Assembly (NCBI GenBank): GCA_002428525.1
Contig: DIWU01000003.1
Coordinates: 16,662 to 80,661, forward strand
Reading direction: 5' to 3'
DNA from: a bacterium UBP14_UBA6098
Lineage (GTDB): Bacteria > UBP14 > UBA6098
Length of the DNA stretch: 64,000 nucleotides
The first letter of the stretch is position 1; each line of letters opens with the position of its first letter. A program made the position numbers and the translations under genes. A model generated the notes under the pieces. It was not told where the DNA came from and did no database searches. It saw only the letters and a program-made list of their open reading frames with translations. Positions 2,297-32,100 of the stretch are shown here, one piece after another.

Positions 2297-4492
2297 CTAT
2301 TTAAGCAATGTTATCTTTCGGTTCGCCCAATTCCCCTTGCCGTCGGTGGCGCGGACGAAGTATATTCCGCTCGGGACAAACCAGCCGTTGTCGGAGAAGC
2401 TGTCCCAAACCAAGCGGACACGGCCGGGAGCCATCTCGGAATCGAGGAGCCTCGAGACAACCCTACCGGTCATGTCGAGCACCTCGACCGTGTAATGGCC
2501 GTGTTCGTAGGCGTCGAACCAAATCGAGGTGACCGCGTTGAAGGGGTTCGGGAAGTTTCTGCCAAGGCGGAAATCCGCCGGCATATTCGGCGCGAAGTTA
2601 TCCTCATAGATATCCGAGCCGATCTGCTCGAGGGCGTAGGCCGCATGAACCAGCTCCGCGCGGGGAAGCCGGAGATAGGAGACCTCACCAAGAGAAACCT
2701 CTCCCTCGCCATCGATTGAGCCGGCGGGATAGGGCTTTAATCCGGCGTCTTTGTCGAGGATGAAGAACAGGTGAACATAGTTGTCAATCCTCTCGGCGAC
2801 AGACACCTCGATCTCGGAGTAGCACGAGCCTGTGGAACACGCCGGCGAGGCGGTGTTCGAGATATTCAGAGGATCGGACCAGAAGCCGCTGTCCGGATTA
2901 AACACCGAGCAATAGATCTCGGAATTCGGGAACCCGAGAAGCGAATTATCGACGAGAAGCGTTCCGGTTTCGCACCACCAATATTCGGCCCAGCGTTGCT
3001 CCCAGAATACAAAGATGTTGCCCTCTTCATCAACCGCGACAGAAGGCTCATGGCTCGGGCCCATTTGGGTATAGCGGAAACCGTCTTCGGGGCGGTAATC
3101 CGAGGGCGGCCTGAATAGCCAGTAGTTATCCCATGTCACCGTGTCGATTACACCGGTTGCCTCATCCCAGTGGTAGAGGCATTCGAGCTGATAGGCCCCG
3201 ACCGAACACGCGGCCGCACAGCTTGTCTCCCAGCCCTCATGAGGCGCGAGCACCAGCCCGCCCCAAACCGCATGAAGCACGCCATCGGGAGAATAGGTGA
3301 CATTAAGCTCAACCGGACGAAGATACGCCGGCCTATAAACTTCAACCGTCTCCGGCGGAGTCACCGAGGAATCAAGGGACCAGCCGACATAGATGCTCTC
3401 GGGATAATCCGAATAGACATGAACCATCGGCTCGGTCACTTGCTCGGCGGCGCTCCATGTCGCGCCCATATCGGAAGAACGGCGGATATGGATCGCCGCG
3501 GCATCGAGGATTGTCGTGTAGTAGTTCGCGGTGTCGCAATAGCAGGTATCGGCTTCGACGATCGGGTCTCTGCGGATATAGCCCATCGCGACCTTATTGT
3601 TGCCCTCGAGGCCTTTCCATGCGGTGATATCGGGCGTGATTCCGATCTGGTCGTTTTCGATCTCAACCGGAGGCTCGAAAACCAACTGCTTGATATACAT
3701 CTCATCCGGCTTAATAAAGCCGCGATAGTATAGCAAGCGGCTACCGCACTCCTCGCCGGTGAGGGGAACGATACCGCTCGAGTTCGAGCAGGTGCTGACC
3801 AAGAAAACTGTTGTGTCGATCTGGGCGATCTTCGGCCAAATAGCGATACAGTCTAAGGTCGGGTCCTCGGGAACTAAATACGGGGCGGGACCCAAAGTCG
3901 GGTTTGTGAAAGTGCAACGATACAGGCCGTCGGAGATATAATAGAAAAGATCGAAGGCCGCGTTGGTTTTTGCGTTGGCCGTGCTACTCAGCGCGTCGTG
4001 ATAAACAACAGTCGGAACGCCGGTTATATCGTCAACGGCGATATTGGAATAACCGGCTTTTAAACCGGAGTTAACCTGAACACCATCTAAGAGGCAAATC
4101 CATCCGGTTGCCGGATCGCCGCCCCGAATCGAATCGCTGTGGAAATAATTGTATTTAACATTCCTAATAGAATGCGTCGGCTGGGAGGCGTCCATCCAAG
4201 AGACATGAACACCGCCGTTGGGATCGACAGCGATATTGCGACCCTTGGTCGAGTTATGTTGCATGTCGTAGTAGGTGTCTCCGGCGATATAGCGGGTGAA
4301 ACCGTGATAGACGGGGAACGGCGGCGTGCTGTCAACCTCCATCGGGGAGAACGACCGCGAATAATCTACCGCCGGTGGCGCTCCTCCGATTGGGACATGA
4401 ACTCCCCCGAGCCGCGGCCGAAGGGCGTCGTCCGCCATAAGGACTCCGGCAAAGATCGTCGCCAGAGCGAGAACTAATAAAGCCTTCCTCAT
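2297..4492 (-). CDS. Secreted protein of unknown function with T9SS C-terminal sorting domain
   Basis: 731 aa. N-terminal signal peptide MRKALLVLALATIFAGVLMA. C-terminus ...NFPNPFNAVTSIWFDAYEHGHYTVEVLDMTGRVVSRLLD...SGIYFVRATDGKGNWANRKITLLK is a typical Por_Secre_tail (T9SS type A CTD). Confidence 0.8.
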   Translation of the reverse strand: MRKALLVLALATIFAGVLMADDALRPRLGGVHVPIGGAPPAVDYSRSFSPMEVDSTPPFPVYHGFTRYIAGDTYYDMQHNSTKGRNIAVDPNGGVHVSWMDASQPTHSIRNVKYNYFHSDSIRGGDPATGWICLLDGVQVNSGLKAGYSNIAVDDITGVPTVVYHDALSSTANAKTNAAFDLFYYISDGLYRCTFTNPTLGPAPYLVPEDPTLDCIAIWPKIAQIDTTVFLVSTCSNSSGIVPLTGEECGSRLLYYRGFIKPDEMYIKQLVFEPPVEIENDQIGITPDITAWKGLEGNNKVAMGYIRRDPIVEADTCYCDTANYYTTILDAAAIHIRRSSDMGATWSAAEQVTEPMVHVYSDYPESIYVGWSLDSSVTPPETVEVYRPAYLRPVELNVTYSPDGVLHAVWGGLVLAPHEGWETSCAAACSVGAYQLECLYHWDEATGVIDTVTWDNYWLFRPPSDYRPEDGFRYTQMGPSHEPSVAVDEEGNIFVFWEQRWAEYWWCETGTLLVDNSLLGFPNSEIYCSVFNPDSGFWSDPLNISNTASPACSTGSCYSEIEVSVAERIDNYVHLFFILDKDAGLKPYPAGSIDGEGEVSLGEVSYLRLPRAELVHAAYALEQIGSDIYEDNFAPNMPADFRLGRNFPNPFNAVTSIWFDAYEHGHYTVEVLDMTGRVVSRLLDSEMAPGRVRLVWDSFSDNGWFVPSGIYFVRATDGKGNWANRKITLLK

Positions 4493-7066: not shown

Positions 7067-9499
7067 TTATTTGAGCATAACCATCCGTTTGGAGATCGAC
7101 TTGTCGCCGGCCTCGAGGCGGTAAAGATATATGCCGGAGGGCATCTCGCGGCCTTTGTCGTCGCGGCCCTCCCAGATGATGCGATACGTTCCGGCTGTGA
7201 AGTTATCGTCCACGAGCGTGGTTACCTTCTCGCCGAGGACATTGTAAACCTCGAGCTTCGCCGGCTGGTCGGCGGGAATATCGAACTCGATCGCAGTTGT
7301 CGGGTTGAAGGGGTTCGGGGAGTTGCTCTTGAGGGCAAGTTCCTTCGGCAGATAGGACCCATCCTCGCCAACCCCCGTGACGCCGGTGACGACACAGCGG
7401 ATCATCAGATCGATGTTGTTCAGCGGCGCGGAGGCGCTGGCCAAATCGCTTGTGTCGATAGCGACGAGCGTTCCGAACTCGTCGAAGTAATGGATTATCG
7501 CAAATCCTTTGCGATCGACCGGAGTCGTGTTGTCGATACCGACAACCGGCATCTGGCTATCGATCGCGACACCGACGAACACGAAGAACGTCGAGTCCGG
7601 AAGACTCACGGGCGAGTCTGACAGATCGATAGTCACCCAAGAGCCGTTGGTCGGATCCGAATCGATAGTATGGTTGGCGTCGTAAAGCTCGGTTCCACCG
7701 TTGGGGATATCGAAGATGCCGTTATCCAGCACCATCACGCGCGCTGAGCCGCTGTATTTCGTGAAGAATTTGACATGAGTAAGACGAAGGGTCTGAAGAC
7801 CGGCCGTCTGGTAGAAGAAGTTCCCGATACAATCGCCGGCGACCATCGATGGGCCGAGGAAGCCATTATAGCTGAGGCCGCTGGTCGGGTCGGTGGCGAC
7901 ATCGTTCAAACCGTCGTCCCAACCGAGCTCGCGAACCTCGGCTCCGGGAACTGTGAATGTAGTTTGGAAGGTGTCGTTCGAGACATTGAGGTCGGTGCCC
8001 AAGGAGGTCCAGACCCTGATAGAGTAGTCACCCGGCTGAGTGAGTTGAAGCTGTGCAACCGCTGTGCCGAACTTCGCGGGGGCTATCGTCGGGCGCGGGA
8101 AGAAGGTCATCGTCGTGTCGTGCATATCAGGGAAGGTGATGACGCCGTTGACTTGAATCAGGCTCTCATCCGACATCCCGAGGTTCGAGACCTTAACAGT
8201 GAAACGACCGTAATCGCGGAAATTGAGCGGCCCGGTGACGACATCGGTCGGGGCGATATCGTGAAGCGGGGCATAGTTGCCCGAAATGGTGACATCGTCG
8301 ATCTTAAACCACTGGGACTCATTCGGTTGGCCGTCACCGCGAGCCATAATCATGATCTGAATGTCCTTGCCGGCGAACTCGAGAAGCGAATTCCTCATGC
8401 CGTAGGCGACATCATAGAGCACGCTCTCATCGTAGAGACGCCATGTCTCGTCGATATAGCCGGGACGGTAATAGTTATGGGACATCTGAACCATTGAGTC
8501 CGCGTCCAAATCTTTGACATAGATGACGATATAATCGTCGAGCGAGCCGTCATCGTTGGGATCGAAATCGGCGCAGTTGGTTTTGATATAGAAACTGAGT
8601 GTGCCGTTGAAGGTGTCGGCAAGGCTAATCACCGGAGAAACGAGTGTGCTATAGGTCTCCGAGCGGTTGTATGCAACCGCGCAACCGCTTCCGGTATTGG
8701 CGTCGGTGGTGGTCGCCTCCCATGTCATAAGCTCGCGGCCTTGAGAGGCCACCGAAGCGCCCGAGCCGGAATCGTAGAGAAGCGTGTCGCTGTCGCTTGT
8801 AATCACGATCTCGTCAACAATCCAGCCGAACATAGTCGAGTCGAAGGCGTCGGCGTCGCTGTGCGTCGGGCCTGTGCTGAACATCATGTCCGACGCGAAG
8901 ACAAATCTGACCTTCACTCTCCTGCCGGCGAAATCGGAAAGGGAGGCTGTGATCGTTTCGAAGGTGGTCGCGCCGTGAATGCCCGTCCATGCGGCATAGC
9001 CGGGGCCGAGGCCGCAGAAGCCGAAGCCCCAGAGGCTTGTGCAATTGTAGGCCGAACCGGCGCCGGGAGTGAGAGTCGCCCAAGTGGCGCCGTCATCGGT
9101 GGAAACCCACACCGCCGCGCCGTCCCAGCCGTCGTAACCGAAGGGCCAGCCGCTGGTTCCCGCAGGCTCGGTATTGAGTTTGTGCTTGAATGTTAATGTA
9201 GCGGTCATCGCGGTCATCGGAATAGAAACAGCCGGCATATCGAGGTATTGAAGCCAGCCGTCGTTGTAGCCGTTGTAGCCGGTCCCGCCGACATCCAAAG
9301 TCCCACACCAATAGCTCAATCCGTCATAGGAGTTGAATGTGTCCGCGTGCCAATAGGCATCTGTGTCGTCATACCAATACAAGTCGCCGACTTCCCATGT
9401 CATCGGCCCCTCGAAACCCTCATATAAAAGTGTATCGACCTGACCGAAGACGGCGCCGGCAAATATCGCTAAACACAGCGATAATAAAAGCCTCTTCAT
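7067..9499 (-). CDS. T9SS-secreted protein with MAM/jelly-roll-like domains, function unknown
   Basis: 810 aa. Signal peptide MKRLLLSLCLAIFAGAVFGQ. N-terminal LYEGFEG..W..GD.W motifs typical of MAM-like domains. C-terminal SPNPFNPTTAIEFDIPADQPAKLEVYNVLGEKV...SGIYLYRLEAGDKSISKRMVMLK is a T9SS CTD. Confidence 0.75.
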   Translation of the reverse strand: MKRLLLSLCLAIFAGAVFGQVDTLLYEGFEGPMTWEVGDLYWYDDTDAYWHADTFNSYDGLSYWCGTLDVGGTGYNGYNDGWLQYLDMPAVSIPMTAMTATLTFKHKLNTEPAGTSGWPFGYDGWDGAAVWVSTDDGATWATLTPGAGSAYNCTSLWGFGFCGLGPGYAAWTGIHGATTFETITASLSDFAGRRVKVRFVFASDMMFSTGPTHSDADAFDSTMFGWIVDEIVITSDSDTLLYDSGSGASVASQGRELMTWEATTTDANTGSGCAVAYNRSETYSTLVSPVISLADTFNGTLSFYIKTNCADFDPNDDGSLDDYIVIYVKDLDADSMVQMSHNYYRPGYIDETWRLYDESVLYDVAYGMRNSLLEFAGKDIQIMIMARGDGQPNESQWFKIDDVTISGNYAPLHDIAPTDVVTGPLNFRDYGRFTVKVSNLGMSDESLIQVNGVITFPDMHDTTMTFFPRPTIAPAKFGTAVAQLQLTQPGDYSIRVWTSLGTDLNVSNDTFQTTFTVPGAEVRELGWDDGLNDVATDPTSGLSYNGFLGPSMVAGDCIGNFFYQTAGLQTLRLTHVKFFTKYSGSARVMVLDNGIFDIPNGGTELYDANHTIDSDPTNGSWVTIDLSDSPVSLPDSTFFVFVGVAIDSQMPVVGIDNTTPVDRKGFAIIHYFDEFGTLVAIDTSDLASASAPLNNIDLMIRCVVTGVTGVGEDGSYLPKELALKSNSPNPFNPTTAIEFDIPADQPAKLEVYNVLGEKVTTLVDDNFTAGTYRIIWEGRDDKGREMPSGIYLYRLEAGDKSISKRMVMLK

Positions 9500-9621
9500 T
9501 AATCCTCCTTAGTTGGTTGAATAATTAATCGCATATATGTTTCATTATATTCGGCTTGCTCGATATGTCAAGACCGAAAAGCCAAAAAAACATATGTCAA
9601 AACTATCCATACAATATCACT

Positions 9622-9763
9622 CCGGGGCGTCGGGATAACTCCATCCTTTGGAAAGCGGGCTTTCAAAAGGATGGAGTTATCTCCGACAGGCCGGGCGGCG
9701 ATTTTTGACATGGCAAAATTTTCGCTCCGGCCTGTCGGCCCGCGCATGCGCGGCCGACGCCCC
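9622..9763 (+). repeat. Structured intergenic repeat, copy 1 (nested inverted repeats: outer GGGGCGTCGG/CCGACGCCCC, inner hairpin, CCGACAGGCCGG/CCGGCCTGTCGG, palindrome CGCGCATGCGCG), followed by TTTTT
   Basis: Direct inspection of the sequence. The same architecture recurs at 12563..12698. Confidence 0.8.
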
Positions 9764-9855
9764 TTTTTATTATGTTGAGTTTGAGAGCAAATAAATCTGC
9801 GTAAAGCTAATAAAATCTATTTGAATTTGGGAATAAAAAAGCATATAAATAGTAG

Positions 9856-10110
9856 ATGAATCGTGAAAAGGTATTAAGCGAACTCGAAGAATTAGCTTCG
9901 CGGATAGGCATTACAATCCGTTACGAGAAGATGGGGACTATCTCCGGCGGTTTGTGTCGAATTCACGACGGCGAGGTGATACTTATCAACCGGCATCTCT
10001 CGACCGCGTCGAAGATCGAGCTTTTGGCGAAGGAGCTTATGCTTGAATCGGAGAAGCTCGAGGCCGTTTTCATCCTTCCCGAGATAAGGGACATCATCGG
10101 TCTATCGTGA
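9856..10110 (+). CDS. Hypothetical small protein (84 aa), translationally coupled to comEC
   Basis: ATG start after an AT-rich promoter-like region. Its stop TGA overlaps the GTG start of comEC (GTGA at 10107-10110). No recognisable domain; it is not ComEA-like (no HhH motif). Confidence 0.45.
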   Translation: MNREKVLSELEELASRIGITIRYEKMGTISGGLCRIHDGEVILINRHLSTASKIELLAKELMLESEKLEAVFILPEIRDIIGLS

Positions 10111-12554
10111 AACGGCGCGTTTTGCTCCCGATGCCGCTTTTATGGGTTTTCCTCGCATTAATTGTCGGTATTGCTTTCGCGTCGAGCTTTGGTTTTGATT
10201 CGCGGGTGAGCTTGACGCTTTTTTTGGGGCTTGGGGTTTTGGCGTTAGTTTCGTCTTCATTTGTGAAATCCCCAAATTTCCGTTTTATTCCTTCATTACT
10301 GCTACTAAGTGCGGTGGCCTCTTTCGGGGTCTTCAGATACTCGATCGTCAGCGCGGTGAGTTCCGAAGATATTGTGCGTTTGGTAGGTCGTCAGGTGCGG
10401 CTTTTCGGCTCGGTCGGCGAGGAAATTCAGGTGGAGGGCGAAAGGCAGAGGTTCGATCTCGAGGTAGATTCGGTCTCGATCGAGGGCGGGGTTTATACAG
10501 CGCGCGGAATTGCTCGAATTTATCTTTATCGCGCACGGACAGTGGATTTCGGCGATATTTTGGCTTTGGACTGCATACTCGAACAACCGCGCCCCGCGAC
10601 GAACCCTCACGGTTTCGATTTTCGTAAATCATTGGAACTCAAAGGGATAAAAACAATCGCCTTCGTTCGCGGAGACGACAACATCGCTATAATCGGAAAG
10701 AATACCGCGGGGCTATATCGGAGGCTGACCTGCGCGATTCGAGACCATGTCGAAAAAACAATAAAGCTAATTCCGGAATACGACGAAACCGCCTTGCTTC
10801 GAGGGCTTCTTCTCGGAAAGGGCGGAGAGCTTCCAACCCCTGTGCGAAGGGCCTTCGAGGACTCGGGAACCGTGCATATTCTCGCGGTGAGCGGCTTGCA
10901 TGTCGGCATCATCGCGGGGATTCTATGGCTTCTTTTCGGCAAGATAGTCAAGATGCCTAAGCCCTTGGCCGTTTGTTTGTGTATTCTCGGGCTTGCGCTT
11001 TATGCCGGTGTCGTCGGTGGAAGGCCCTCGGTTCTTCGCGCGGCGCTGATGTTCTCGATCATTCTTTTCGGCTCTGCCCTGAAGCGCCCCTCGAACCCGA
11101 TGAACTCGATCGGAGCGGCCGGCGCGACTCTGCTCGTCATCGAGCCGTTATGGCTTTTCGATATCGGCTTTCAGCTCAGCTTCGCGGCGACGCTCGGGAT
11201 TATATATCTTTTGCCCTACTTTGAGGAATGGCTTCCCGCGAGGCATGTTAAATCGGGGTTTTTACGGAAGTTCGTCCTCGGAGCGTTGGCCGTCTCGATA
11301 GCGGCGAATATCGGCACCGCGCCGTTTGTAGCGTTTGTTTTTCATAGACTTCAAACAATTTCCCCGCTGGCGAATATCTTCGTAGTGCCCTTCGTAGGCT
11401 CGATCATCGGTTACGGCATACTCGCATCGGTGTTATCGCTCTTTTGGGAAAACGGCGCGATATGGGTGCTTCAGTTCGACCGCCTGATCCTGCGGGTGAT
11501 TCTCGAAGCGGCATCGTTTTTCGCCACGACGAGGTTTTCGTATCTCCCCTTTCCAAGGCCGGCGATCGCCGCTTTCGGTTTGTATTATTTGTTTATTATC
11601 GCCCTTCCACCGATCCTATCGCGCCGAACAAAAGGCATCCTCGCAATCGGGATTTTCCTCACTGCGGCCGCCGCCTCGACATGGGCGATGTTCGAGATGT
11701 CCAGACAGAGGCTCGACTGCGACCTCCGAGTGACCTTCTTCGATATCGGCCAAGGGGACTGCGCGCTGATTGAATTCAAGGACGGCCGCAAAGCGATTAT
11801 CGACGGCGGCCCGCCGGATAACGCCGCCTTCGCTGTCCTCCCCTATCTCGAATCGAACTCGATCGCGAAAATCGACCTCGCAATCCTTTCACACCCGGAC
11901 GCCGACCACCTCGGCGGAATCGTAGATATCTTCGACGAGGTGCCCTACGATGCCCTCGCAGTCCCGCACAGAATAAGAACCAACGACCTTTACGGGCGCT
12001 TTCTCGATCGGCTCGATTCCCTCGAAGTTCCGATTACAATATATACAGCGGGGGACACAATCCCCGGCTTCCCAGAGCTGATCGCTATATGGCCGGATTC
12101 AACAGCCGTTTCACCCGCCGGCTCCCTGCTCGTCAATGTCAACGAGGCCTCGCTTGTAATACTGCTCGAGCTGGGCGAGGTGGAATTCTTGTTCTGCGGA
12201 GATATAGGCTTCCCCTCAGAGGCATATATCGAGGGCATCGAAGAGGAGATCGATATCCTCAAAGTCCCCCATCACGGCGGTAAATTCAGCTGTAGCCAAG
12301 GCCTCATCGAGACCGCGACACCCCTCGCATCGATAGTCTCGGTCGGAGCGAAAAACCGTTTCGGACACCCCTCCCCTCAAGTCTTAGATCGCTTGAATAA
12401 GTCCGGCTCGGAAACCTTCCGAACAGATATATCGGGTGCAATCACAATCGAGGTTCTCGGCGATTCGATATTCATCGAGACCTTCGACGGCAATACCCTC
12501 CGCTTCTCAGGCCTCGACCAACCCCTTCCGCGCCGAGATAGCCCGCAAATTTAA
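10107..12554 (+). CDS. comEC: DNA internalization-related competence protein ComEC/Rec2
   Basis: 815 aa. N-terminal DUF4131-like region, polytopic competence domain, and a C-terminal metallo-beta-lactamase fold with LSHPDADHLGG. Confidence 0.9.
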   Translation: MKRRVLLPMPLLWVFLALIVGIAFASSFGFDSRVSLTLFLGLGVLALVSSSFVKSPNFRFIPSLLLLSAVASFGVFRYSIVSAVSSEDIVRLVGRQVRLFGSVGEEIQVEGERQRFDLEVDSVSIEGGVYTARGIARIYLYRARTVDFGDILALDCILEQPRPATNPHGFDFRKSLELKGIKTIAFVRGDDNIAIIGKNTAGLYRRLTCAIRDHVEKTIKLIPEYDETALLRGLLLGKGGELPTPVRRAFEDSGTVHILAVSGLHVGIIAGILWLLFGKIVKMPKPLAVCLCILGLALYAGVVGGRPSVLRAALMFSIILFGSALKRPSNPMNSIGAAGATLLVIEPLWLFDIGFQLSFAATLGIIYLLPYFEEWLPARHVKSGFLRKFVLGALAVSIAANIGTAPFVAFVFHRLQTISPLANIFVVPFVGSIIGYGILASVLSLFWENGAIWVLQFDRLILRVILEAASFFATTRFSYLPFPRPAIAAFGLYYLFIIALPPILSRRTKGILAIGIFLTAAAASTWAMFEMSRQRLDCDLRVTFFDIGQGDCALIEFKDGRKAIIDGGPPDNAAFAVLPYLESNSIAKIDLAILSHPDADHLGGIVDIFDEVPYDALAVPHRIRTNDLYGRFLDRLDSLEVPITIYTAGDTIPGFPELIAIWPDSTAVSPAGSLLVNVNEASLVILLELGEVEFLFCGDIGFPSEAYIEGIEEEIDILKVPHHGGKFSCSQGLIETATPLASIVSVGAKNRFGHPSPQVLDRLNKSGSETFRTDISGAITIEVLGDSIFIETFDGNTLRFSGLDQPLPRRDSPQI

Positions 12555-12562
12555 CCCCGCCT

Positions 12563-12698
12563 CCGGGGCGTCGGGATATGCACCTCGGAAAAGCAGGCTT
12601 TTCCGAGGTGCATATCTCCGATAGGCCGGGCAAAGACTATCAATATTTATCGATTGTTCCTCCGGCCTATCGGCCCGCGCATGCGCGGCCGACGCCCC
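12563..12698 (+). repeat. Structured intergenic repeat, copy 2, same orientation as copy 1 and immediately after the comEC stop
   Basis: Shares CCGGGGCGTCGGGA...TCTCCGA(C/T)AGGCCGGGC...CTCCGGCCT(G/A)TCGGCCCGCGCATGCGCGGCCGACGCCCC with copy 1. The inner hairpin has a different sequence but remains self-complementary. Confidence 0.8.
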
Positions 12699-12782
12699 GG
12701 GGGCTTATGCTATTGACAAGTCCTATATCGAGAGATAAATTATAGGCTTACTAAACTCAATGGATAGGCTTAAAGGGGCGAC

Positions 12783-14066
12783 TTGGAGAAGGATATTAAG
12801 AAGACTGTTCTCTCGAATGGCATACGGGTATTGTCTTTGCCGCTGGCATCGAGGCGCGGCGCGGCTGTTGGTGTATGGATCGATGCGGGTAGCCGCGACG
12901 ATCCCGCAGGAAAGGCGGGCTTGAGCCATTTGGCCGAGCACATGTCTTTCAAGGGAACACCGACGCGTAGCGCTTTGGATATAGCCCGCGAGCTCGAGAG
13001 TATAAGCGCTTCGGAGGACGGCTACACCTCGCAGGAGGAGACTTGTTATTACTTGTATCTCCCGGGCGAGGAGATCGGCAGGGGGATGGAGATTTTGGGC
13101 GATATGGTCTCTCACGCCGCGATCGACGCGAAACTTTTCGAGCGCGAACTTTCGGTTGTTGCGAGCGAGATGAGCGATGTCGAGGACACCCCCTCGGAGA
13201 TCGCCCGCGACTATTTCGCGACGGCGATCTTCGGCGACCATTCGCTCGGCAAACCGATCTTGGGCTACCCCTCGACCTTGAAGGCCATATGTCGCGACGA
13301 TGTCGCCTCTTTTGTGAAGGGGCATTATGTCGCTCCGCGGATCATTCTCGCCGCAGTCGGAAATATCGACCACGAGGAGTTCTGCGACCTTACAACCCGC
13401 TTTTTCGATGTCAGCGGTGAAGGTTTACCGAAGGATCGTATCGCGCCTGCTCCAACGCCGACCGGAAAGCTTCACCTGATCGAGAAAAAAACCTCGCAAC
13501 TTTCGATCTATCTCGGTGGCAGGGCCTATCGCTTCGATGACCCGCGCAGATACAGCCTCGCCGTGTTCGACACAATACTCGGTCGAGGCGCTTCGAGCCT
13601 GCTCTTCAACCGCCTTCGCGAGGAGGAGGGAATCGGCTATCGAATCTTCTCCTTCGAGGAATACTTCGGAGACTGCGGACTTTGGGGCATCTACGCCAAT
13701 CTCGACCCCACGGATTTCGAGCGGTTTTTCGGGATAGTCGATTCGATTTTCGACGATATCGTCGAGGGAAGGGCCGTAAACGAGCGTTTCGAGGAGACGA
13801 TTCGCGGCTTGACAGGCATGGCCAAACTCGAAGGCGATTCAATAAGCCAGTTGTTGACCCGCTTGGTCGAGACCGAGCTTTACTGCGGCAGATATATCTC
13901 GCCGGAGGAAACCCTCTTCAAACTGGCCTCGATCAGGCCGGCCGATGTCATCGAGACCGCGCGGGAACTGCTCGATCGCCGCAAGATTACAGGCGTTTAC
14001 TACGGCAAATCAAAATCGCGAACCTTCCCCGAATGGCTCGCTCCGGTGAAGGGCGAATTGGCATGA
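12783..14066 (+). CDS. Zinc peptidase, M16 (insulinase/pitrilysin) family
   Basis: 427 aa. Inverted zinc-binding motif HLAEH (HxxEH) near the N-terminus. Two-lobed M16 architecture. TTG start. Confidence 0.85.
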   Translation: MEKDIKKTVLSNGIRVLSLPLASRRGAAVGVWIDAGSRDDPAGKAGLSHLAEHMSFKGTPTRSALDIARELESISASEDGYTSQEETCYYLYLPGEEIGRGMEILGDMVSHAAIDAKLFERELSVVASEMSDVEDTPSEIARDYFATAIFGDHSLGKPILGYPSTLKAICRDDVASFVKGHYVAPRIILAAVGNIDHEEFCDLTTRFFDVSGEGLPKDRIAPAPTPTGKLHLIEKKTSQLSIYLGGRAYRFDDPRRYSLAVFDTILGRGASSLLFNRLREEEGIGYRIFSFEEYFGDCGLWGIYANLDPTDFERFFGIVDSIFDDIVEGRAVNERFEETIRGLTGMAKLEGDSISQLLTRLVETELYCGRYISPEETLFKLASIRPADVIETARELLDRRKITGVYYGKSKSRTFPEWLAPVKGELA

Positions 14067-15742: not shown

Positions 15743-17324
15743 GTTATTATCATTATTTATGTTATCCCTTTTCGTCGCCTCCGGTGTCGCGGTTGAAAAG
15801 TGCGGCCTGCCCGAGCTTATTATGTCGAAAGCACCGTTGACCCTTTCCCGGCCTATTCGCGAATGCTCTTACGACTCAGGGCATTTCCGCGTTTGGTTCG
15901 ACACGACCGGCGTCCATGCTATCCCCCTTCGCGACAGTCTCCCCGCCGACGGCGTGCCCGATTGGGCGCAATGGGCTACTGAATACCTTGAACGCGCCCG
16001 CGCCCTATTGGTAGATACTCTCGGCTACCGCCATCCGATCGCGGATTCGAGCACCTTTTCCGGCAGAACCGATGTCGGCGGCGATGACCGCACCGATATC
16101 TACTTCACCGATATGGAGTTCTACGGAATGACCTATCTCGATACGATGCTCGCCGGCGGTGTCGGGCCAGCATTCTTGACTATCGAGAACGATTATGAGG
16201 AAGCGAGTTTTCCAAATTACATCGGTCGCGAGGAACAAGCACTTGCTGTCACCTGCGCGCACGAGTTTTTCCATGCCATTCATTATGCCTATGGCAGTAA
16301 CAGTTCTTGGACATGGTGGATGGAGGCGACTGCAGTTTGGGCGGAGGAGCGGGTGTTTCCACATGTTAATGATTATTTAGCTTATCTTACTGCTTTTCAG
16401 GCCTCTCCTGAGGCCGGTTTAAATAACAATACGCCTTCCGGCAGGTTTTACGGCTCCTGTCTTTTTCCTATGTTCCTATCGGCAAACTACGGCGATTCGG
16501 CTATTTTCGAGATTTGGTCGAACATTCCGTCGAACAATGTATATCCTGCTATTTCATTATGGGCAAATGATTTAGGTATTAATCTAAAATCTCTTTACGG
16601 CAATTTCGCATTATGGAATCTTCTGGTTGATGATAATTACCGAGAATATGGTTACATCGATGCGCCTCTAATGCCTAAACCAAAGCTCACTCATCGCGAT
16701 TCACTGCCGGATAATCTCACCGCCGCGGGCGGTGCAGTCTATATTTCTCTACCAAAATATATTGATGGCGGCCTTTGGGCGGAATACTCGCCCGCAGATT
16801 CTATCTCGGCATTATTACATAGTATTTCATATACAGGTAATGATTTTTCAGATACTACTCTTAATATTTTTAATCGCCCCGACACAATCCCCGGAACATG
16901 GCGTTTCGATGGGGTTTACACTGTATTGGCCAATCTCGGAACTACACCGTCATCTTCGGCGAGGCTCGGGCAAATCCTTACAGGCCCTGCACCATCTGCT
17001 CGAGTCCCAATCCCCGACGATGTCCTCGATCGAACGCCTTATCCAAACCCATTCATTTACAGCGAAGCGGAAACGCTTTACATACCCTACACTTCTTCCG
17101 GTGAGTTCCCGATCCGCTTTTCCGTTTGGAATGTCGCAGGAGAGCTTATTTACGAGCGAGTCGATATGACTACATTTGGTTATCATCTAACAAAACGAGG
17201 AGCTCTCCCGTGGGTGCCGCAAAATTATACCGGCAAATCGCTTGCGAGTGGAGTTTATGTTTACATTTTGAGTATAGAAAATAATTCCTTTACAGGACGA
17301 TTCGCAATTATCAATGATAATTAA
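15732..17324 (+). CDS. Secreted zinc metalloprotease (HExxH) with T9SS C-terminal sorting domain
   Basis: 530 aa from a TTG start (alternative ATG at 15759). Signal peptide present. Motif TCAHEFFHAIHY (HExxH). C-terminus YPNPFIYSEAETLYIPYTSSGEFPIRFSVWNVAGELIYERVD...SGVYVYILSIENNSFTGRFAIIND is a T9SS CTD. The 3' half is anomalously low in GC. Confidence 0.75.
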   Translation: MRRKLLSLFMLSLFVASGVAVEKCGLPELIMSKAPLTLSRPIRECSYDSGHFRVWFDTTGVHAIPLRDSLPADGVPDWAQWATEYLERARALLVDTLGYRHPIADSSTFSGRTDVGGDDRTDIYFTDMEFYGMTYLDTMLAGGVGPAFLTIENDYEEASFPNYIGREEQALAVTCAHEFFHAIHYAYGSNSSWTWWMEATAVWAEERVFPHVNDYLAYLTAFQASPEAGLNNNTPSGRFYGSCLFPMFLSANYGDSAIFEIWSNIPSNNVYPAISLWANDLGINLKSLYGNFALWNLLVDDNYREYGYIDAPLMPKPKLTHRDSLPDNLTAAGGAVYISLPKYIDGGLWAEYSPADSISALLHSISYTGNDFSDTTLNIFNRPDTIPGTWRFDGVYTVLANLGTTPSSSARLGQILTGPAPSARVPIPDDVLDRTPYPNPFIYSEAETLYIPYTSSGEFPIRFSVWNVAGELIYERVDMTTFGYHLTKRGALPWVPQNYTGKSLASGVYVYILSIENNSFTGRFAIINDN

Positions 17325-23110: not shown

Positions 23111-26100
23111 TTAGTCTCTTCTGCCGAGATAAGCCTCTGCGGGGACAATAGCAGTCTGAGGCGGAACCTCGGCCGGGATTTCGAATTCAGAGGGCGGCGA
23201 CGGGCGGCGTCTCGAGGAGTATGTCACGGGGACATTGATTGTTCCGCCGGTGCTGTTGATCCTCGCGATGATGACGCCCGAGCTTGGGTAGTTAGTATCC
23301 GGCGCGGCCGCTACCGTGAAAGAGATCTCTCCTGTCGGGCCGGTGACGCCCGATGTCGGGGGCAAGACGGTTGCGTTTGCGCCGAACAGCTCGACCAGCT
23401 CGCCGCAGATCGGGTTCTTCCATTGATCGACGATACGGACGCTGACGGGGAAGTCATAGCCGTAGGGCACGCTTTCCGGTGCGGTGATCTTGGATTCCTC
23501 GGAGTTGGGCGTGTCGTGTTTGAGGAAGATTGTGTCCGACTGACTTATTCCACCGACCGTGCCGGTGACCCTTGCGAGGCCGCCGGTGTCCGAGGCGCAA
23601 TAGTTGTCGATATAGACATTGCGGGCGGTGTATCGCCCGATGGCGTAGCTGGCGTAGCACTCGTTAGTTGTGTAGATCGGCGAGATCACACTCCCCCAGT
23701 CTGTGACGAGCTGAACAGTCGTGCTGTCGGTGACTGGATTCTCGTTGACATCCCAAACATCGACGCGGACATCGGAGAAGCCTGTCGAGTCGGCATAGGT
23801 GAGGCCCGGCAGGACGCTGATATCGATTCGGTTCGGCCTTCCGCTGGCATAGAATGAAACCGAGCCTTGGCGGATTCCGCTTGTATCTCTTGTTTCCGCG
23901 GTGACTTCGACGACGCCGTCTGTGCGCGGACTCGAGGAGAACCATGTCGCGAAGGCGAAGCCGGAGTCGTTGGTTGTGGCGGAGGTTGTGATCGCGCCCT
24001 CGTCGGAGGTGAACCACACAGCGGTTCCCGGGGCGACCGGGTTGAGGAACTCGTCGGTGATGATTGCGAGGATCTGGTTGGGAACGCCGTCAACATCCCA
24101 GCCGCGGACATTGCATTCGTATGCCGAGACGGAGACATTGCGGGGAAGCCCGCTTCCGACCGTGATTCTCGGCGCACGCGTGACGAAGGTTCCGCCGCCG
24201 GGGAGGTAGGCTGTAGCCTCGACGACGATTGAGCCGGATCTGTCGCCGGCGCGGAGTGTCGCGCTGGCTCTGCCGTTGATTGTATAGACCGTGTCGCTAA
24301 TAAGGGTGCCACCGGGGATAAGCTCGGGATCGAGAGAACCTCCGGTTGGATATGCGACGATTCGGAAGACGACAATACTGCTGTCGCGGACGGGGTTGTC
24401 GTATTGGTCGTAGATGACTGCGCTGATGACCGATTGATCGACCTCGCCGACACCGCGGATATAGATGAAGTCCCGGCTGACAGCAATGTCAGTTGTATGC
24501 GGCGGGCCGGCGTAGAGGAGGAAGTCCTTTCTCGCAGTGAGAGAGCCGACGCGGGCAACGATTCCAGTAAGTCCGGCTTTTAGGCCGGGGGCATAGTTTG
24601 TTCGGTAATTACCGCTGTCGTCGGTGGCGACGACAGGGTCTGCGATACTTCCCATACCGGTGCTATCGACTGAGATATAGACATAGGTTCCGCGCGCGAC
24701 CGGGTTTCCGGCGGCGTCCGTGACCATGCCTGTGACTGCGCTGAGTGTGCTACTTCCGACAGTCGCGGTATCGGGTGTGACGAAGATGGTGATTGCATCG
24801 GCCGGGCCGGCGTCATAGATGACCTCGACGGCGATTGTTTCGGTTTGGCAGGAGGCCCAAACTGTATCGACGCTCGGCCTGTCGGCGGAGACGAGAATCG
24901 CGGTCGCGACGCCGCTTTCGAGGGAATCGAGCGGCGCGATCAAGCCGTATTTAGCGGTGAATCTAACGATAACGCCGTCGGAAACCGGGTTGCCGAGGCT
25001 GTCGGTGACGATAGCTCGGACATTAGCGGTGGAGGTTCCGTCTGCGGGAAGGCCGCGCGGGGTCACAGAAAGGGCGATATTCGCAGTCTTGGTCGGGATG
25101 AACTCCACCGGCAGATAGCCTGTGACGCCGCCGGTCGAGGCCTGAAGATAGGTGTTGCCTATTCGGTTCGGCGCGGTGATTCTGAAGGGCAGTCTGCCAT
25201 CGGAGCCGGTGACGCCGATCGGAGGAACGACGGTTCCGGTGGCGAGCGTGAGGTTGAGCGTCGCGCCCGGAATTCCGTTTCCGAAGGCGTCCTCGACGCT
25301 TATCGAGGCCTTGATCGTGTCCTCGCCGTCGGCCTTAAGTTGGACATAGTTGATTTGCTCGTAGTCAAGTGCTCCGAGCGTGTCGAAGCGAATTGTCGAG
25401 ACATTGCCCGGCTGGAAACTGACCTCGAGCGTTTCGACCGAGGCGATCGTGTCGAAGCCGCCGAGGCCGTCCGGAAGGATGCAGTAGGCGTAAATGGATG
25501 TGCTTCCGACGAAGGTCGGGGCTATGAGGTTTATTCGGGCGAAGCCGTCGGAGGTTGTGACGAAGCTTGGGTTGAGCAGGGCGGGCTGGCTTCCGGGGGT
25601 GACGATTTGGCCGAAGCGGACGCCTGTTCCGTCGGCGATCTCCATGCCGGAGGAATCGGTGACGAAGGCGGAGACTTGGGTGGAGCTGACGCCGTCGGCG
25701 GGCATAAAGCGGTCTGCGACGGAGACATGTATCTCGTTGACATTTGTCGGCTGAAGCTCGACCTGCGTGATTCCGTCGGCGCCCTCGCACTCGGCGCGGA
25801 TGATCGCCACACCGGCGTATCTTCCGGCCCTGAAGGGGACATCGACGAGGCCGTCCTCGTCGGTGACATCGGCGGCCCAGATTGTGCCGTAGCCTGCGGG
25901 TTCAACGGAGAAATTAACCACATGGCCGATTCCGACCGGGTTGCTGGCCTGATCGAAGACCTGTCCGAAGATTCGGGTTGTATCGGTCTCGTTGGCTGTG
26001 AGAATTAGGTCGGCGGAGCTGAGCAGGATATAGTCCGGCGGGCCGGAGATGAAGCTGATCGTGTCCCACACTTCTATAAGGCCGCTTCGGGCGTAGAGAG

Positions 26101-29100
26101 TATCGAGGCCGGTGGAGGTATAGGAGCTGATAGTTGCGCGGGCGATACCGCCGGTAGTCGTGGCGAAGATCGGCGTGATGCTTCCGAGGTTGAGGCCGTA
26201 GAAGCGGACTGTGGTGCCGTCGGAGATCGGCGAGCCGAGGGAGTCGAGCACGACCACCGAGACCTCGGCGGTGCTTGAGCCGTTCGCGATGAGGGTCGGC
26301 GGGATGATAGTAAGCGTGACATCGCTGACCTGAGTCGAGATGAACTCGATCAGTATATTGCCCGTTGCGGAGCCGGAGGTGATTGTCACATTGGAGAAGC
26401 CGCTTGTGTTTCCGGCGATGAGCCTGACTGTGACATAACCGGCGGTGTCGGTGTAGGAGGTTGGGATTATCGTTCCGAGGGTGGCCGAGAAATTCACCGC
26501 GACGCCTGAGGCGACGGGATTGCCGTATTGATCGAGAACTCGGACGGTAATCATCGATGAATCGACGCCGTTTGCCTCGATAATCTCGCGATCGGCGGTC
26601 ACTTCGATGACTGCCGGCGGCCCGGGAATAAACTGGACGAACTGTGTATCGACGGCCGCTCCGCCGGCGCTGGCGGCCACTGCTACCGAGTCGAAGGGGC
26701 TGGTTCCGGCCTTGAGAGTGCTAAGGGCGATTCCGCCCGAGGTATAGGCGACTGCGGGATTGATTATACCGTGCGTTGTGCTGAAGCGGACAATCGTCCC
26801 GTCGGAGACGGGCAGGCCGGCCGAGTCGAAGACGACCGCGGTGAGACTTGCGGTCGAGGAGCCGTTCGAGATGAGAAGCGGCGGATCCACAACTAAGACT
26901 AAGGAATCCGCGGTGAGCGGGATAAATTGGATCGTCGCGTAGTTAGTCGCGCTTCCGCAGGTGGCCGAAAGGCTTGCGACGCCGTAATCGGTGCCGGAAA
27001 CGACGACCGCTTGGGCGTAACCGACGCTATCGCCGGGCCAAACTCCACCGGTGGCGCTGATTGGAGTGACATAGCCTTTGTTGATGCTGAAGTTGACCGC
27101 GAGGCCGTTAGCGACGGGGTTTCCGAAGGCGTCGCGAACTCGGACGATAACGGTTTGCGTGTCTGCGCCGTCGGCGATCATAGTCGGGTTGATCTGGTGG
27201 AAATCGAGAATCGATGGCGCTCCCGCGACGAACTCGACCGCGACGGTATCCTTCAACGTCTCAGTGACTGTCGCGACGACTTGATTATCACCGACGATAA
27301 CACCGGAGGTAAGCGTCGCAGTGGCTTGGCCGCCGCTTGTATAGACAGTGCGCGGGTTGACGACACCGGTTCCGATCACTTCGAGGAAGACGGGAGTCCT
27401 ATCGGAGACCGGGCGGGAGCCGTCGATGCTCGAGGTGTCCAGCACTGTGACGGTTATATTGCTTGTCGAGGTGCCGTTTGCGATGATACGAACCGGATTC
27501 GCGACTAAATCGACGAAGTTCGCCTCGATGGCGAGGTATTGGATTACCCTGCTTCCGACCGCGGAACCGCTACGGGCGGTAAGCAGTGCGGGGCCGGTTT
27601 CGGTGCTCGAAATATAGGTTCTCGCCCTTCCGGTGGCGTCCTCGACGACTGTCGGCGTGATGACCGTGCCGCGGGTGGTTTCAAAGGAGACGCTCGTGCC
27701 TATCCTGACCGGATTTCGGAATTCGTCGAGGACATAAACGGCCTGTTCCATTCCGCTACCGTCGGCCGGAAGCGAATCCGAGAAGGCCGGATCGAACTCG
27801 ATAACCGCGGGGTCTCCCGGCTCATAGACAACCGAGACGACATCCTCGACGGTGGCGCCAACCGTTGCGCTGATACTATCTGTTCCGACGGCCAGCGGCG
27901 CTGTGAGCGTCGCCGTTGCGATTCCGCCGGAGGTGAAGGCGATGCGCGGGTTGATTATTCCGTTGGGCGCGGCGTTAATATGCTGGAAGGACACGCGCGT
28001 TCCGTCGGAGACCGGCAGGCCGACCGAGTCGAAGACATAGGCGGTCACTTCGGCGGTGCTGATACCATCGCCGGGGAGCCTTGCGGGAACTATATTCAGG
28101 ACGATTTCGGCGGCGAGTAGCGAATCGAAGCGAACTTGAACGAAATCGATGGCGTCGCCGCTTCGTATCGTCACGAGGGCGTCACCGGGGACTGTGCCGG
28201 AGGTGAGGCGTGTCGTCGCGAAGCCGCTGGTGTTTGTGAAGGCGGTCGCGCCGATCGACCCGAGTGTTGTTGTGAAGGAGACGGCGGTTCCGGGGGTGAC
28301 GGGGTTGGAATATCTATCGAAGACGGTGCAGGAAACCGCGACATTGGAGGAGCCGTCGGCGAAGATAGAATCGAGTTCGGCGTAGGCATCGAGGCGGTTG
28401 GCCGGCCCCGGAAGAAGTCTGAGTGTCATGTTAGCCGTATCGGATTCGGCTGTAGCCCAAACGCCGATCTGGCCGGCCAGAGTGTCCGAGCGGAGGTAGA
28501 TCGTCGCGATGCCGGAATCGGTGAAGGCGATCGCGGGTTCGGGGTGCGCCCATCCGACCGAATCCACCCAGAAGGTGACTTGCGTGCCGTTGGAGATGAG
28601 GTGTCCGCCGTCGGAGTAAACATGGGCATAAACCTTGGTTCGGCTTGTGCCGTTGGCCCTCATCTCGGTCGAGTCGGCGAAGAGGACGATATTATCGACA
28701 TCGGTCGGGTGCATATAGACCTGATGGTATCCGGCGGCGTCGTCGCAACGTGCCTGAATGATCGCATCGCCGGGCTGAATATCGGCGGTAAGTAGCGCGC
28801 GGGCGACGCCCATCGTGTCGGTGATTGCCGAGCTGACGATTGTTCCGCGGTTGGTTTGGAAGCTGACTGTTTTGCCGGCGAGCATACGGTTGCCGTATTG
28901 GTCTAAGACCCGGGCGTAAATGGTTATATCGTCGAAGCCGTCGGCCCAGATCGTGTCTCTGCCGGGGTAGTCGAGGTCGAGGGTGTCGGCCCAGACCTCG
29001 ATTGTCGCGGCGGGGCCGGGGATGAGGAGGATTCGAATGCTGTCGCTAATCTCCACCGCGGGGATGACGGTTGTGTCGGTGACGGAACCGATGACCCACG

Positions 29101-32100
29101 CGGAGCGGGTTCCGACATCGGTGCTTGCGGTGAAGGTCGTCACGCAACTTCCGCCGAGGGTTTGTTTCGGTGAGACGACGATGCCCATTGTGTCCGGATC
29201 GACGCGGAACCTCACGACTGTGCCGTCGGAGACGGGACTGCCGTCGGTGTCGAAGACTTGGCAGGTGATTATCGATTGGGACATGCCGTCGGCTACGAGC
29301 TGAACCGGGTTGGCGGTCAGAAGCAGTGTTCCGACCATACTTTCGCGAAGGATAACCTCTGTGAGCTCGAAAACACCGGCGCTTTGCGCCCAAACGCGGG
29401 CGATTCCGGGGTCGGTGCCGGCCCTTAATATAGTATAGGCGTCGCCGGCCGAGTTGGTGAATGTGTTCGAGGGTGCGATAGATCCGAGGTCGGTGCCGAA
29501 TTGGACGGAGTTGCCGGAGAGCAGTCTGTTTCCGAAATCATCCAGCAAGGTGGCAACGACACGGGTTTCGTCGCGGCCGTTCGCGGCGATGCTTGCGGAA
29601 TCCGGATTAAGAACGATCGATGCGCATGATCCGGGGATGATCTCGACGAAGCCTTGATCGCCTCTCCCCAAGCCATCGCTGGCGGAGATCCAAGCCCTGC
29701 CGCGCTTTGTGCCGACGCGGAAGCGTGTTGTGGCGATTCCGGTCGAGGTATATGCGATTTGCGGGATCAGCGCGCCGAGGGTGTCGGCCGAGGTGAGGAG
29801 CGTATCGCCGATTGTGTCCGGCCAAGTCGCGAAGAATATCGGAGTGCCGTCGGAGACGGGGTTGCCGAAGGTATCGAGGACAGTCGCGCGACACTCGGTT
29901 TCAGTGTAGCCGTCCGCGGGGATAATACGGTCGGTGATTGTCAGCGAGATAGTGATAATATCGGTTTGGACAAAGTGAACATCGGTCTCGCCGCGTGCGG
30001 TCCCAGCGCGGGCGACGATTCGCGCAGTGCCGGTTGTGAAATCGCTACGGAGTGTCGTGATAACGATACCGCTGGAATTGGTCTCGTCGGAGAGCGGGAA
30101 GATTTCGCCTCTGGAGGTCGATAGATCAACCGTCACGCCACCGCGGACCGGGTTTCTGTAGCGATCGAAAACCGCGACGCTACATATCGCCGTGGAGAAG
30201 CTGTCCGCAGGCAGTGTGTCGGGCGTCGCCCAAACCGCTATGCTGTCCGGTTCGCCGGGGACAAGATCGCAACGGGTTGTGTCCGAGATGAAGCTTGCTG
30301 TGGTGTCGCCGATATATGCAACGATATTGCACGAGCCGGCGCGCGTGGAGGCGGTGAAGGTTGCGTTGATTTTGCCGCTGTCCGTGTAAACAATTGTCGG
30401 TGAGACGAAGCCGAGAAGCCCGAGCGAATCGGGGAGTGTGTAAAGCCTAACCGGTGTGCCGTCTGAGATCGGGTTGCCGGCCGAGTTACGAACCATACCG
30501 CTGACAGTGGCCGAAGCGAGGCCGTCCGCGACGAGCGAGTTGGGATCGACTGCAACCACGATGCTCGCGTCGGCGAGGCTATCGGGGAGGAAATCCACTC
30601 TGCCGATTCCGACCGCGGAGCCGGAGGTGGCCATCACGAGGGCTGTTCCGGGGGTGATCCCCGAGCGAAGCTGTGTAATCGCGATGCCGTTTGTATCGTC
30701 CACTGTTCCGGTGACGGCGAGAGAATCTATTGTTCCCAATGTGGTTGTATAGTTCACGAGATAACCGCCGTCAACGCGGTTTCCAACAGCATCGTAAACA
30801 TAGGTGCGAATCTGCGAACGCTGTTCGCCGTCGGCGGCAATGGCCTCGGGATCGGGGATAATATCTATCGATTGCGGCGGGCCGGAAACGAAGCGGACTA
30901 AGACCGTGTCGTCGATATATCCGCTATCGCCGGCCGATCCGACATAAGCGATAACAGTCGCGGTGTCCAACTCGGTGGAACTGCGAAGGCTCGAGGTCGC
31001 CACGCCGGCGATCGTGTAGGCCACTCCCGGATAGGCGAAGCCGACATCGGTTCTGAAGAATATCGGAGTGGAATCGGAGACCGCCATGCCCATCGAGTCG
31101 AGGGCAATCGCGCGAAGGCCGCAACTCGACACGCCATTGGCGATCAGCGACATGCTGTCGGCGAACAGATCGATCGAGGCGACATTGAGCGGAACCAGCC
31201 GCAGAATCTTCGTTCCGACCGGCCCCGCGGAGGTCGTCGCAGTGATGACTGCTGTTCCGGCCGAGGTTCCGGCGAGGAATCGGAAGGTGGTGGGTGCATC
31301 GAGGATCGTAAATCCGAAGGAGGGAACGATCGATCCGAGCGAGGCGACCGGCGAGATCGTCATTTCAATGCGGTTGCCGGATTCGACGGGATTTCCGAAG
31401 CGGTCGTAAACGAAAACGCGAATAGTGGAGGAATCGCGGCCGTCGGCGAAGATAATATCGCGCGGGGTTGTATCGGTTTCGGAAACCACCGATTGGACTA
31501 TGACCTCGAATGGGTCGCCGGGGACGAATTGCACTTGAACTGAGTCGTAGAGATAGGTCGAAGCATCGACCGAGACGGAGCAAATCACCGTGGCGGTTCC
31601 GGTTCTCGTCTCGGAGAACAGCTCGACAGAGGCCTCTCCCCCGACCGTCGTAGCGACGCCCTCGATCGAGCCGAAGTCGTCGCCGGCCGAATCGATGGAG
31701 CGGAAATCGATGCGGGTGCCGTCGCGAACCGGCTGGCCGAGGACATTTTGAATCCTCGCGGTGATAGTCGAATAGCTCTCGCCATCGGCGACAATTCGCC
31801 TCGGGTCGGCGCGGAGGCTGAGGTATTCCGGCGGCGCGGCCTCGAATCGGACTTGGCCGATTCCGACTCGTCCGCCGGCGGTGACATCGATTCGGGCGAT
31901 CGAAGGAACTGTGCCCGAGGTGAGTATAGCCTGCGCACTGCCGGAGCCGTCGGTGAAGGTATTCGCCGGTTGAATCGATCCGGCGGAGGTTACGAACTGG
32001 ACAGTGATTCCGGAGCCGAGGGGGTTGCCATAGCGGTCGAAGAACTGGGCATGCACGACGGTATAAGCCTCGCCGTCGGCGGGAAGCAGGGTATCTTCGG

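Follow-up and report, generated by a model that had tools for sequence, protein, structure and literature searches.

Here we describe a GC-rich repeat element of about 140 nt that occurs in two direct copies on the plus strand, at positions 9620-9763 (copy 1) and 12561-12698 (copy 2) of a 64,000-nt stretch of contig DIWU01000003.1 (assembly GCA_002428525.1, bacterium UBP14_UBA6098), hereafter called the window. The copies enclose a small open reading frame (ORF84) and the gene comEC. The element looks like a new lineage-restricted family that works like the doublets of repetitive extragenic palindromic (REP) sequences known as REPINs or bacterial interspersed mosaic elements (BIMEs), rather than a new RNA gene or a comEC switch. 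On balance, the two copies probably belong to a non-coding repeat family, GC-rich, built of nested palindromes and restricted to its lineage, of the REP-doublet (REPIN/BIME) or miniature inverted-repeat transposable element (MITE) kind; they lie in AT-rich intergenic spacers, and their position around comEC is most likely incidental. Among the identities put forward in an earlier reading of this DNA (the original prediction), a REP-like or MITE-like mobile element fits best, while the RNA and recombination-site readings are not favoured.

Both copies have the same layout, in which a CTCC tag is followed by a 10-bp outer stem and three internal hairpins joined by linkers of 0-1 nt (Table 1). 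The original prediction had recognised two direct copies of about 140 nt bracketing the small ORF and comEC, as is indeed the case, with coordinates beginning 2 nt inside the conserved CTCC. It had also identified the outer stem correctly (GGGGCGTCGG/CCGACGCCCC in both copies, 10 nt per arm). Hairpin 1, for which stems of 19 and 14 bp had been given, in fact has arms of 23 nt with one G.A mismatch in copy 1 and perfect arms of 20 nt in copy 2. For the 12-bp base of hairpin 2, copy 1 has CCGACAGGCCGG/CCGGCCTGTCGG where copy 2 has CCGATAGGCCGG/CCGGCCTATCGG, or CCGAYAGGCCGG/CCGGCCTRTCGG in a form covering both, and this base encloses exactly 32 AT-rich nucleotides. Hairpin 3 is a palindrome, as had been noticed, with its length now corrected to 14 nt (CCGCGCATGCGCGG). 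Removal of the inner hairpins leaves a 22-nt inverted repeat that is perfect and encloses the spacer, GGGGCGTCGG^CCGACAGGCCGG ... CCGGCCTGTCGG^CCGACGCCCC; the 22-nt interrupted inverted repeat that covers both copies, again with the 32-nt AT-rich spacer inside, is GGGGCGTCGG^CCGAYAGGCCGG ... CCGGCCTRTCGG^CCGACGCCCC. Each arm of this repeat contains the small palindrome GTCGG-CCGAC, split at its centre by a hairpin; the left arm holds the long hairpin 1 at this point, the right arm CCGCGCATGCGCGG. A conserved 24-mer of the element occurs twice in the window, against 0 expected, and a conserved 18-mer likewise exactly twice.

The copies have diverged very unevenly. No change is seen at the ends and junctions, whereas the middle of hairpin 1 is held to pairing only and the spacer to length only. 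Counted on an arm-to-arm alignment that was then padded with mirrored gaps, 43 of the 49 pairs of the whole structure are invariant and five are changed on both sides, with no one-sided change and a single mismatch cell. The outer stem (10 pairs) and hairpin 3 (5 pairs) have no changed pair at all, and the hairpin-2 base keeps 11 of its 12 pairs, the last differing by a true double change, as the original prediction had claimed. Hairpin 1 accounts for the rest: 17 of its 22 pairs are invariant and four are changed on both sides, next to the G.A cell and three mirrored indel columns (2 events). Its stems, which had been called entirely different, are homologous, and the claim that self-complementarity is preserved between the copies is borne out. 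All junctions are identical, and the spacers, both 32 nt long, share about 44% identity. With two sequences only, no covariation statistic is meaningful.

As a single strand, either copy can fold into a three-hairpin cloverleaf, or four-way junction, with an energy of -95.9 kcal/mol for copy 1 and -106 kcal/mol for copy 2 (z = -10.2 and -11.4), a stability reached by 0 of 200 shuffled sequences. The hairpins of the element are by far the strongest local inverted repeats within the 64 kb. An alternative fold, made of two extended hairpins plus a spacer hairpin, is weaker by 12-15 kcal/mol with RNA parameters and by 10-13 kcal/mol with DNA parameters. Nothing singles out a transcribed strand, as both strands fold equally well (minus -94.5 versus plus -93.1 kcal/mol for copy 1; minus -88.8 versus plus -92.5 kcal/mol for copy 2), with 0-2 G-U pairs on either.

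Folds of such stability could belong to a structured non-coding or cis-regulatory RNA, a plus-strand four-way junction present in the comEC 3' untranslated region (UTR) at copy 2 and as an independent small RNA at copy 1, whose stems selection on the RNA fold would preserve. Five double-sided changes with no broken pair save one G.A would agree with this, as would a T-run past copy 1, a TACAAT box ending 5 nt before its first base, and the location of copy 2 certainly within reach of comEC transcription. However, the minus strand folds equally and neither strand has an excess of G-U pairs, the stems are perfect and lack the internal loops and bulges usual in functional RNAs, and the mirrored indels would be hard to obtain through independent compensation at the RNA level. 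A promoter scan lists no plus-strand promoter for copy 1. The Rfam search that the original prediction had called for recognised no known family, either at gathering thresholds across the 64 kb (0 matches) or at E<=10 on positions 9400-13000, where only microRNA-hairpin noise appeared. Together with the absence of the element from related loci (below), these points make an RNA function unlikely in our judgement.

A process at the DNA level can yield the same pattern of change. Hairpin-templated 'quasipalindrome correction', which operates by template switching, makes quasipalindromes perfect (PMC7202029), so that the double changes are no proof of selection on an RNA or cruciform structure. 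Mirrored substitutions and indels without one-sided intermediates can arise equally from hairpin-templated correction and from selection on a single-stranded hairpin, and on their own they are not evidence for a functional RNA. The original prediction was right that compensatory changes occur, and only partly justified in deriving structural selection from them, given two copies and equal folding of the strands.

In the nearest available relative, whose comEC is 57% identical, the ORF84-comEC pair is kept, and ORF84 is therefore native operon content rather than part of the repeat. The element was found in neither flank of this operon, and scanning related Zixibacteria-like loci (about 270 kb) with a covariance model built from both copies gave no match. 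Instead, the relative's operon carries an unrelated repeat. A conserved regulatory RNA specific to comEC appears unlikely from these sequence comparisons. The cis-regulatory or terminator RNA suggested by the original prediction is likewise disfavoured by the operon that lacks the element, by the position of copy 1 upstream of both divergent promoters and by the want of an Rfam match. The relative's own repeat, about 150-170 nt long, occupies all three spacers around ORF84-comEC and a C25 peptidase gene, and it seems usual for these genomes to carry intergenic repeats specific to their lineage. In the relative, the cluster of the 810-aa gene (the gene next to copy 1 in the window) does not adjoin the comEC operon.

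A REPIN/BIME-like or MITE-like identity accommodates these features more readily. In the REPINs of Pseudomonas fluorescens SBW25 (Bertels & Rainey 2011, PMC3116915), which are extragenic, conserved inverted ends flank a less conserved spacer that keeps its length and its pairing, compensatory changes across the hairpin are frequent, and the sequence can fold either as a long hairpin or as a 'clover'. The present element likewise has inverted palindromic units around a spacer, able to form a hairpin or a clover, and combines conserved ends with a variable, length-constrained spacer and compensatory changes; its two cores differ, which makes it a hetero-dimer. Differences from REPINs are the unrelated cores (48/42 nt versus 14 nt), a clover as the most stable fold, the lack of a GTAG tag and a host that is Zixibacteria-like rather than a proteobacterium; no REP-associated tyrosine transposase (RAYT) was found in about 96 kb. 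REP/REPIN families typically number tens to hundreds of extragenic copies in one genome, which also has a gene for the cognate RAYT, a Y1 HUH transposase, as a rule flanked by the repeats. Tagged REP dimers and BIMEs include inverted hetero-dimers of different palindromic units, whose spacers measure 20-100 bp and vary, as do those of tail-to-tail dimers, and they often follow directly on a coding region (Di Nocera et al. 2013, PMC3733652). A CGTC/TGTC motif stands beside the palindromes in these tagged REPs and in our element (GGGG-CGTC-GG, CC-TGTC-GG). However, CGTC REPs have stems of 8-9 bp starting with A/T pairs, loops of 4-5 nt, an unpaired tag and a CCA tail (PMC3733652), whereas the stems here measure 20-23 bp and 5-6 bp, the CGTC is paired within the outer stem and no CCA tail is present. 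The set of features that defines CGTC/GTAG-tagged REPs (unpaired tag, 8-9-bp stem, 4-5-nt loop, CCA-like tail) is accordingly not seen, and the differing stem lengths and paired CGTC place the element outside the four defined CGTC families.

In size, terminal repeats and intergenic location there is also a likeness to MITEs, with perfect 10-bp terminal inverted repeats in both copies that extend in copy 2 to 16 nt at 94%. ERIC and Correia elements are of the MITE type, about 100-150 bp long, intergenic and lineage-specific, with terminal inverted repeats, and fold when co-transcribed. Their target-site duplications can be recognised (TA for Correia) and each genome carries them in large numbers, in contrast to the two readable copies without a clear duplication found here. 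BIMEs and RIP elements of E. coli are built of palindromic units.

A repeat of the REPIN/BIME or MITE kind would spread or persist as DNA, probably through a single-stranded hairpin intermediate on which a transposase from another part of the genome might act. Protein would then recognise the invariant ends and junctions, the middle of hairpin 1 would need only to pair and the spacer only to retain its length, and the mirrored changes could come from selection on the hairpin, from hairpin-templated correction in replication, or from both.

Several results weigh against this assignment. Only two copies are readable in about 96 kb of the source contig, and their placement less than 3 kb apart is mildly unexpected at random (roughly 6%). 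No transposase, RAYT, integrase, recombinase or reverse transcriptase is present among the genes checked in the window and its flanks (about 96 kb). Target-site duplication amounts at best to 2 bp (GC, beside copy 2). Classical REPINs are homodimers, whereas the palindromic cores here differ from each other. Searches for relatives of the element, which the original prediction had proposed by sequence and by covariance model, returned no third copy in the sequence searched, which included the remainder of the ~87-91-kb source contig and loci from relatives. A 21-mer of the element had seven chance matches in the searched GTDB genome contigs, all in high-GC genomes and without any other part of the element; a 23-mer gave 0 matches in the searched metagenome contigs of the Joint Genome Institute (JGI), where a gapped pattern of hairpin 2 retrieved only 19 unrelated palindromes. 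IMG/VR contained 0 matches to the element, and blastn against plasmids and phages found none. The case for additional copies, set out next, is indirect and depends on the topology of assembly graphs.

Short-read assemblies of the locus break at the element in a reproducible manner. The Logan assemblies are built with k=31, and within one accession every 31-mer is distinct (PMC12424806). Contigs that enter from the 810-aa gene end at 9749 in five independent samples and at 9761 in one further sample, with scattered far ends, and an ORF84-comEC contig spanning exactly 9732-12700 is identical in six samples. The longest identity between the two copies is 29 nt and no 30-mer is repeated at the element within the window, so that the copies share less than k and the breaks require loci outside the window. 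A 42-nt node at 9720-9761 in common with a third locus would predict ends at 9749 (9720+29) and 9732 (9761-29), and a node beginning at 12671 and shared with another locus would predict 12700. Identical breaks in five to six samples imply at least two further loci sharing 31-42 nt, and the genome probably holds more copies. Such a repeat would explain the fragmentation of short-read assemblies of this organism at the locus. An assembly artefact is excluded by the identical sequence in two JGI assemblies and many Logan assemblies. The samples in question are hydrocarbon-degrading enrichments, with the locus found in JGI 3300001567 and 3300002498 and in Logan SRR943309-15, SRR942927 and SRR5323185; the uncultured host is Zixibacteria-like, and a paralogue match bears the name Zixibacteria.

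These breaks also bear on the idea that the direct copies are recombination sites of a mobile or excisable ORF84-comEC cassette, whether attC-like or otherwise structure-specific, or serving an on/off deletion of competence, which we regard as very unlikely. The direct repeats do enclose exactly one operon, the neighbours of that operon differ between the window genome and the relative, and the outer stem and hairpin 2 both contain homologous 5-bp stretches (GTCGG/CCGAC) that would make branch migration possible. Yet the contig breaks indicate further copies elsewhere, contigs from the neighbouring genes either keep the same arrangement or break at the element with no deletion variant among them, and comEC, which possesses a promoter region of its own and a vertical relationship to homologues in Zixibacteria, shows no compositional anomaly. 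With no integrase or recombinase in the same stretch of about 96 kb, the recombination-site candidate of the original prediction finds no support. Like the element, integron attC sites are structured, imperfectly conserved palindromes that lie as direct repeats around cassettes and have a variable central region that can branch. They differ in their R''/R' core sites, extrahelical bases and integrase, and the unit enclosed here is native, a 2.7-kb operon that has a promoter of its own. An attC identity was rejected because copy 2 has neither the R'' core site (RYYYAAC) nor the R' one (GTTRRRY), the stems are perfect and devoid of extrahelical bases, and no integrase was found.

The homology of the arms is an observation in its own right. 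In copy 1 the 5 bp next to the junction are the same in the outer stem (9629-9633/9754-9758) and in hairpin 2 (9683-9687/9734-9738), which would let the junction branch-migrate or refold as a pair of extended hairpins. Owing to the covarying pair, only 4 bp of this homology are left in copy 2. It is barely conceivable that the element is a protein-recognised four-way-junction module of DNA (or RNA) whose branch-migratable arms (GTCGG/CCGAC) serve a structure-specific recombinase or HUH enzyme in a reversible excision of ORF84-comEC. If that were true, the direct pair around ORF84-comEC would switch natural transformation by structural means, in a bacterium of a candidate phylum.

Rather unlikely, in our view, is a host function as punctuation, in which the element would be kept not as a selfish repeat but to terminate or insulate transcription, to protect mRNA 3' ends, or to bind a nucleoid protein or gyrase. 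Copy 2 fills the sole space from the comEC stop to the next promoter, which has no other terminator, copy 1 parts two divergent promoters, and roles of this kind are documented for REPs and BIMEs (PMC3733652). However, a terminator scan lists neither copy, copy 2 lacks a T-run and no gene reads into copy 1. The promoter geometry also differs, with 49 nt from the 5' end of copy 1 to a -35 box and 15 nt from the 3' end of copy 2, and the relative runs the same operon without the element. The combination of a GC-rich hairpin, an immediate U-run and the end of a transcription unit, which marks an intrinsic terminator, is found at neither copy. The terminator-like T-run noted earlier at copy 1 does exist, as TTTTT directly 3' of the copy, but the terminator does not follow from it, in view of the empty scan and the absence of a gene reading in.

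Copy 1 sits between, and upstream of, both divergent promoters and is, from the promoter sequences, probably outside both mRNAs. A TTGAAT-17-TATAAA site was recognised by eye directly before the ORF84 ATG. Its TATAAA box lies 6 nt ahead of the ATG (9844-9858) with no Shine-Dalgarno sequence, a spacing that suggests, at the level of sequence, that the ORF84-comEC mRNA is leaderless. In copy 2, the conserved sequence sets in 6 nt past the comEC stop (12552-12554), close to it as had been stated, if not in strict contact, and we infer that copy 2 lies in the comEC 3' UTR. The flanks are ATATCA and TTTTTA at copy 1 and CCCCGC and GGGGGC at copy 2. Liang, Rudd and Deutscher reportedly observed in 2015 that E. 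coli REPs affect translation termination or mRNA 3' ends. By analogy, copy 2, as a very stable structure starting no more than 15 nt from the stop codon, may act for comEC as a 3' stabiliser, a terminator or an impediment to translation termination.

Other known classes were considered and set aside. A retron non-coding RNA was rejected for want of a reverse transcriptase, a RIP element with a site for integration host factor (IHF) since neither spacer matches WATCAANNNNTTR by eye, and a DNA-uptake sequence since there are only two occurrences in 64 kb. In agreement with the original prediction, which saw no tRNA or CRISPR pattern, no tRNA or transfer-messenger RNA was found, and the flanks of the 32-nt spacer are inverted rather than direct, with no CRISPR array. 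At the protein level, a concatenated six-frame pseudo-protein query made from the element had no matches, its exact spurious ORFs are absent from the protein collection searched, and a 55-aa ORF compared with a representative library of 1.84 billion proteins matched its own locus and one unrelated, weak 986-aa protein (E = 4e-5).

Further repeats in the window are of other kinds. A 163-nt direct repeat of 80% identity (69-231 and 4189-4351) is not non-coding and stems from two paralogous surface-protein genes of the type IX secretion system (T9SS) type, whose products of 720 aa and 731 aa are 64% identical. A giant ORF of 5065 aa on the minus strand (23111-38308) has many internal repeats every ~300-600 nt (families D1-D9). 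An 18-nt inverted repeat at 520-559, AAAAACTGCACCTTTCAA/TTGAAGGGGGCAGTTTTT, stands between A- and T-runs and looks, from its sequence, like a bidirectional intrinsic terminator downstream of the formate-tetrahydrofolate ligase (FTHFS) gene.

Table 1. Positions of the repeat element, its parts and neighbouring features (window coordinates, except for the last row)
Feature	Position	Strand	Remarks
Copy 1, whole	9620..9763	+	covariance model score 171 bits
Copy 1, CTCC tag	9620-9623	+	
Copy 1, outer stem 5' arm	9624-9633	+	
Copy 1, hairpin 1	9634-9681	+	48 nt
Copy 1, T linker	9682	+	
Copy 1, hairpin-2 base	9683-9694 and 9727-9738	+	
Copy 1, AT-rich spacer	9695-9726	+	32 nt
Copy 1, C linker	9739	+	
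Copy 1, hairpin 3 palindrome	9740-9753	+	
Copy 1, outer stem 3' arm	9754-9763	+	
Copy 2, whole	12561..12698	+	covariance model score 162 bits
Copy 2, CTCC	12561-12564	+	
Copy 2, outer stem	12565-12574 and 12689-12698	+	extendable to 12559-12574 and 12689-12704
Copy 2, hairpin 1	12575-12616	+	42 nt
Copy 2, T linker	12617	+	
Copy 2, hairpin-2 base	12618-12629 and 12662-12673	+	
Copy 2, spacer	12630-12661	+	32 nt
Copy 2, C linker	12674	+	
Copy 2, hairpin 3	12675-12688	+	
ORF84, small ORF	9856..10110	+	weak IrrE/M78-like match; overlaps comEC start
comEC/rec2	10107..12554	+	domains DUF4131, Competence and metallo-beta-lactamase; gene between the copies
Sigma-70 promoter of divergent 810-aa T9SS-type gene	9544..9571	-	TTGACA-16-TATAAT, 12/12 consensus matches
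Promoter-like site of M16 peptidase gene	12713..12741	+	TTGACA-17-TAAATT; begins 15 nt past copy 2
Relative's own repeat (L010 of the nearest relative's metagenome-assembled genome)	12436-12610, 16367-16545, 9530-9695	+, +, -	core GCGCTGTCACGRTTTTTGC ... TGTCACGRAATTTGC-N6-GCAAATT

The element opens no long-standing question to a direct test. It does carry a caution, in that 'compensatory' changes between copies of a DNA palindrome are not readable as evidence for a structured RNA. If confirmed genome-wide, the element would add a Zixibacteria-like lineage to the bacteria that have nested palindromic repeats of the REPIN/BIME-like sort, with an unusual hetero-dimeric cloverleaf design.

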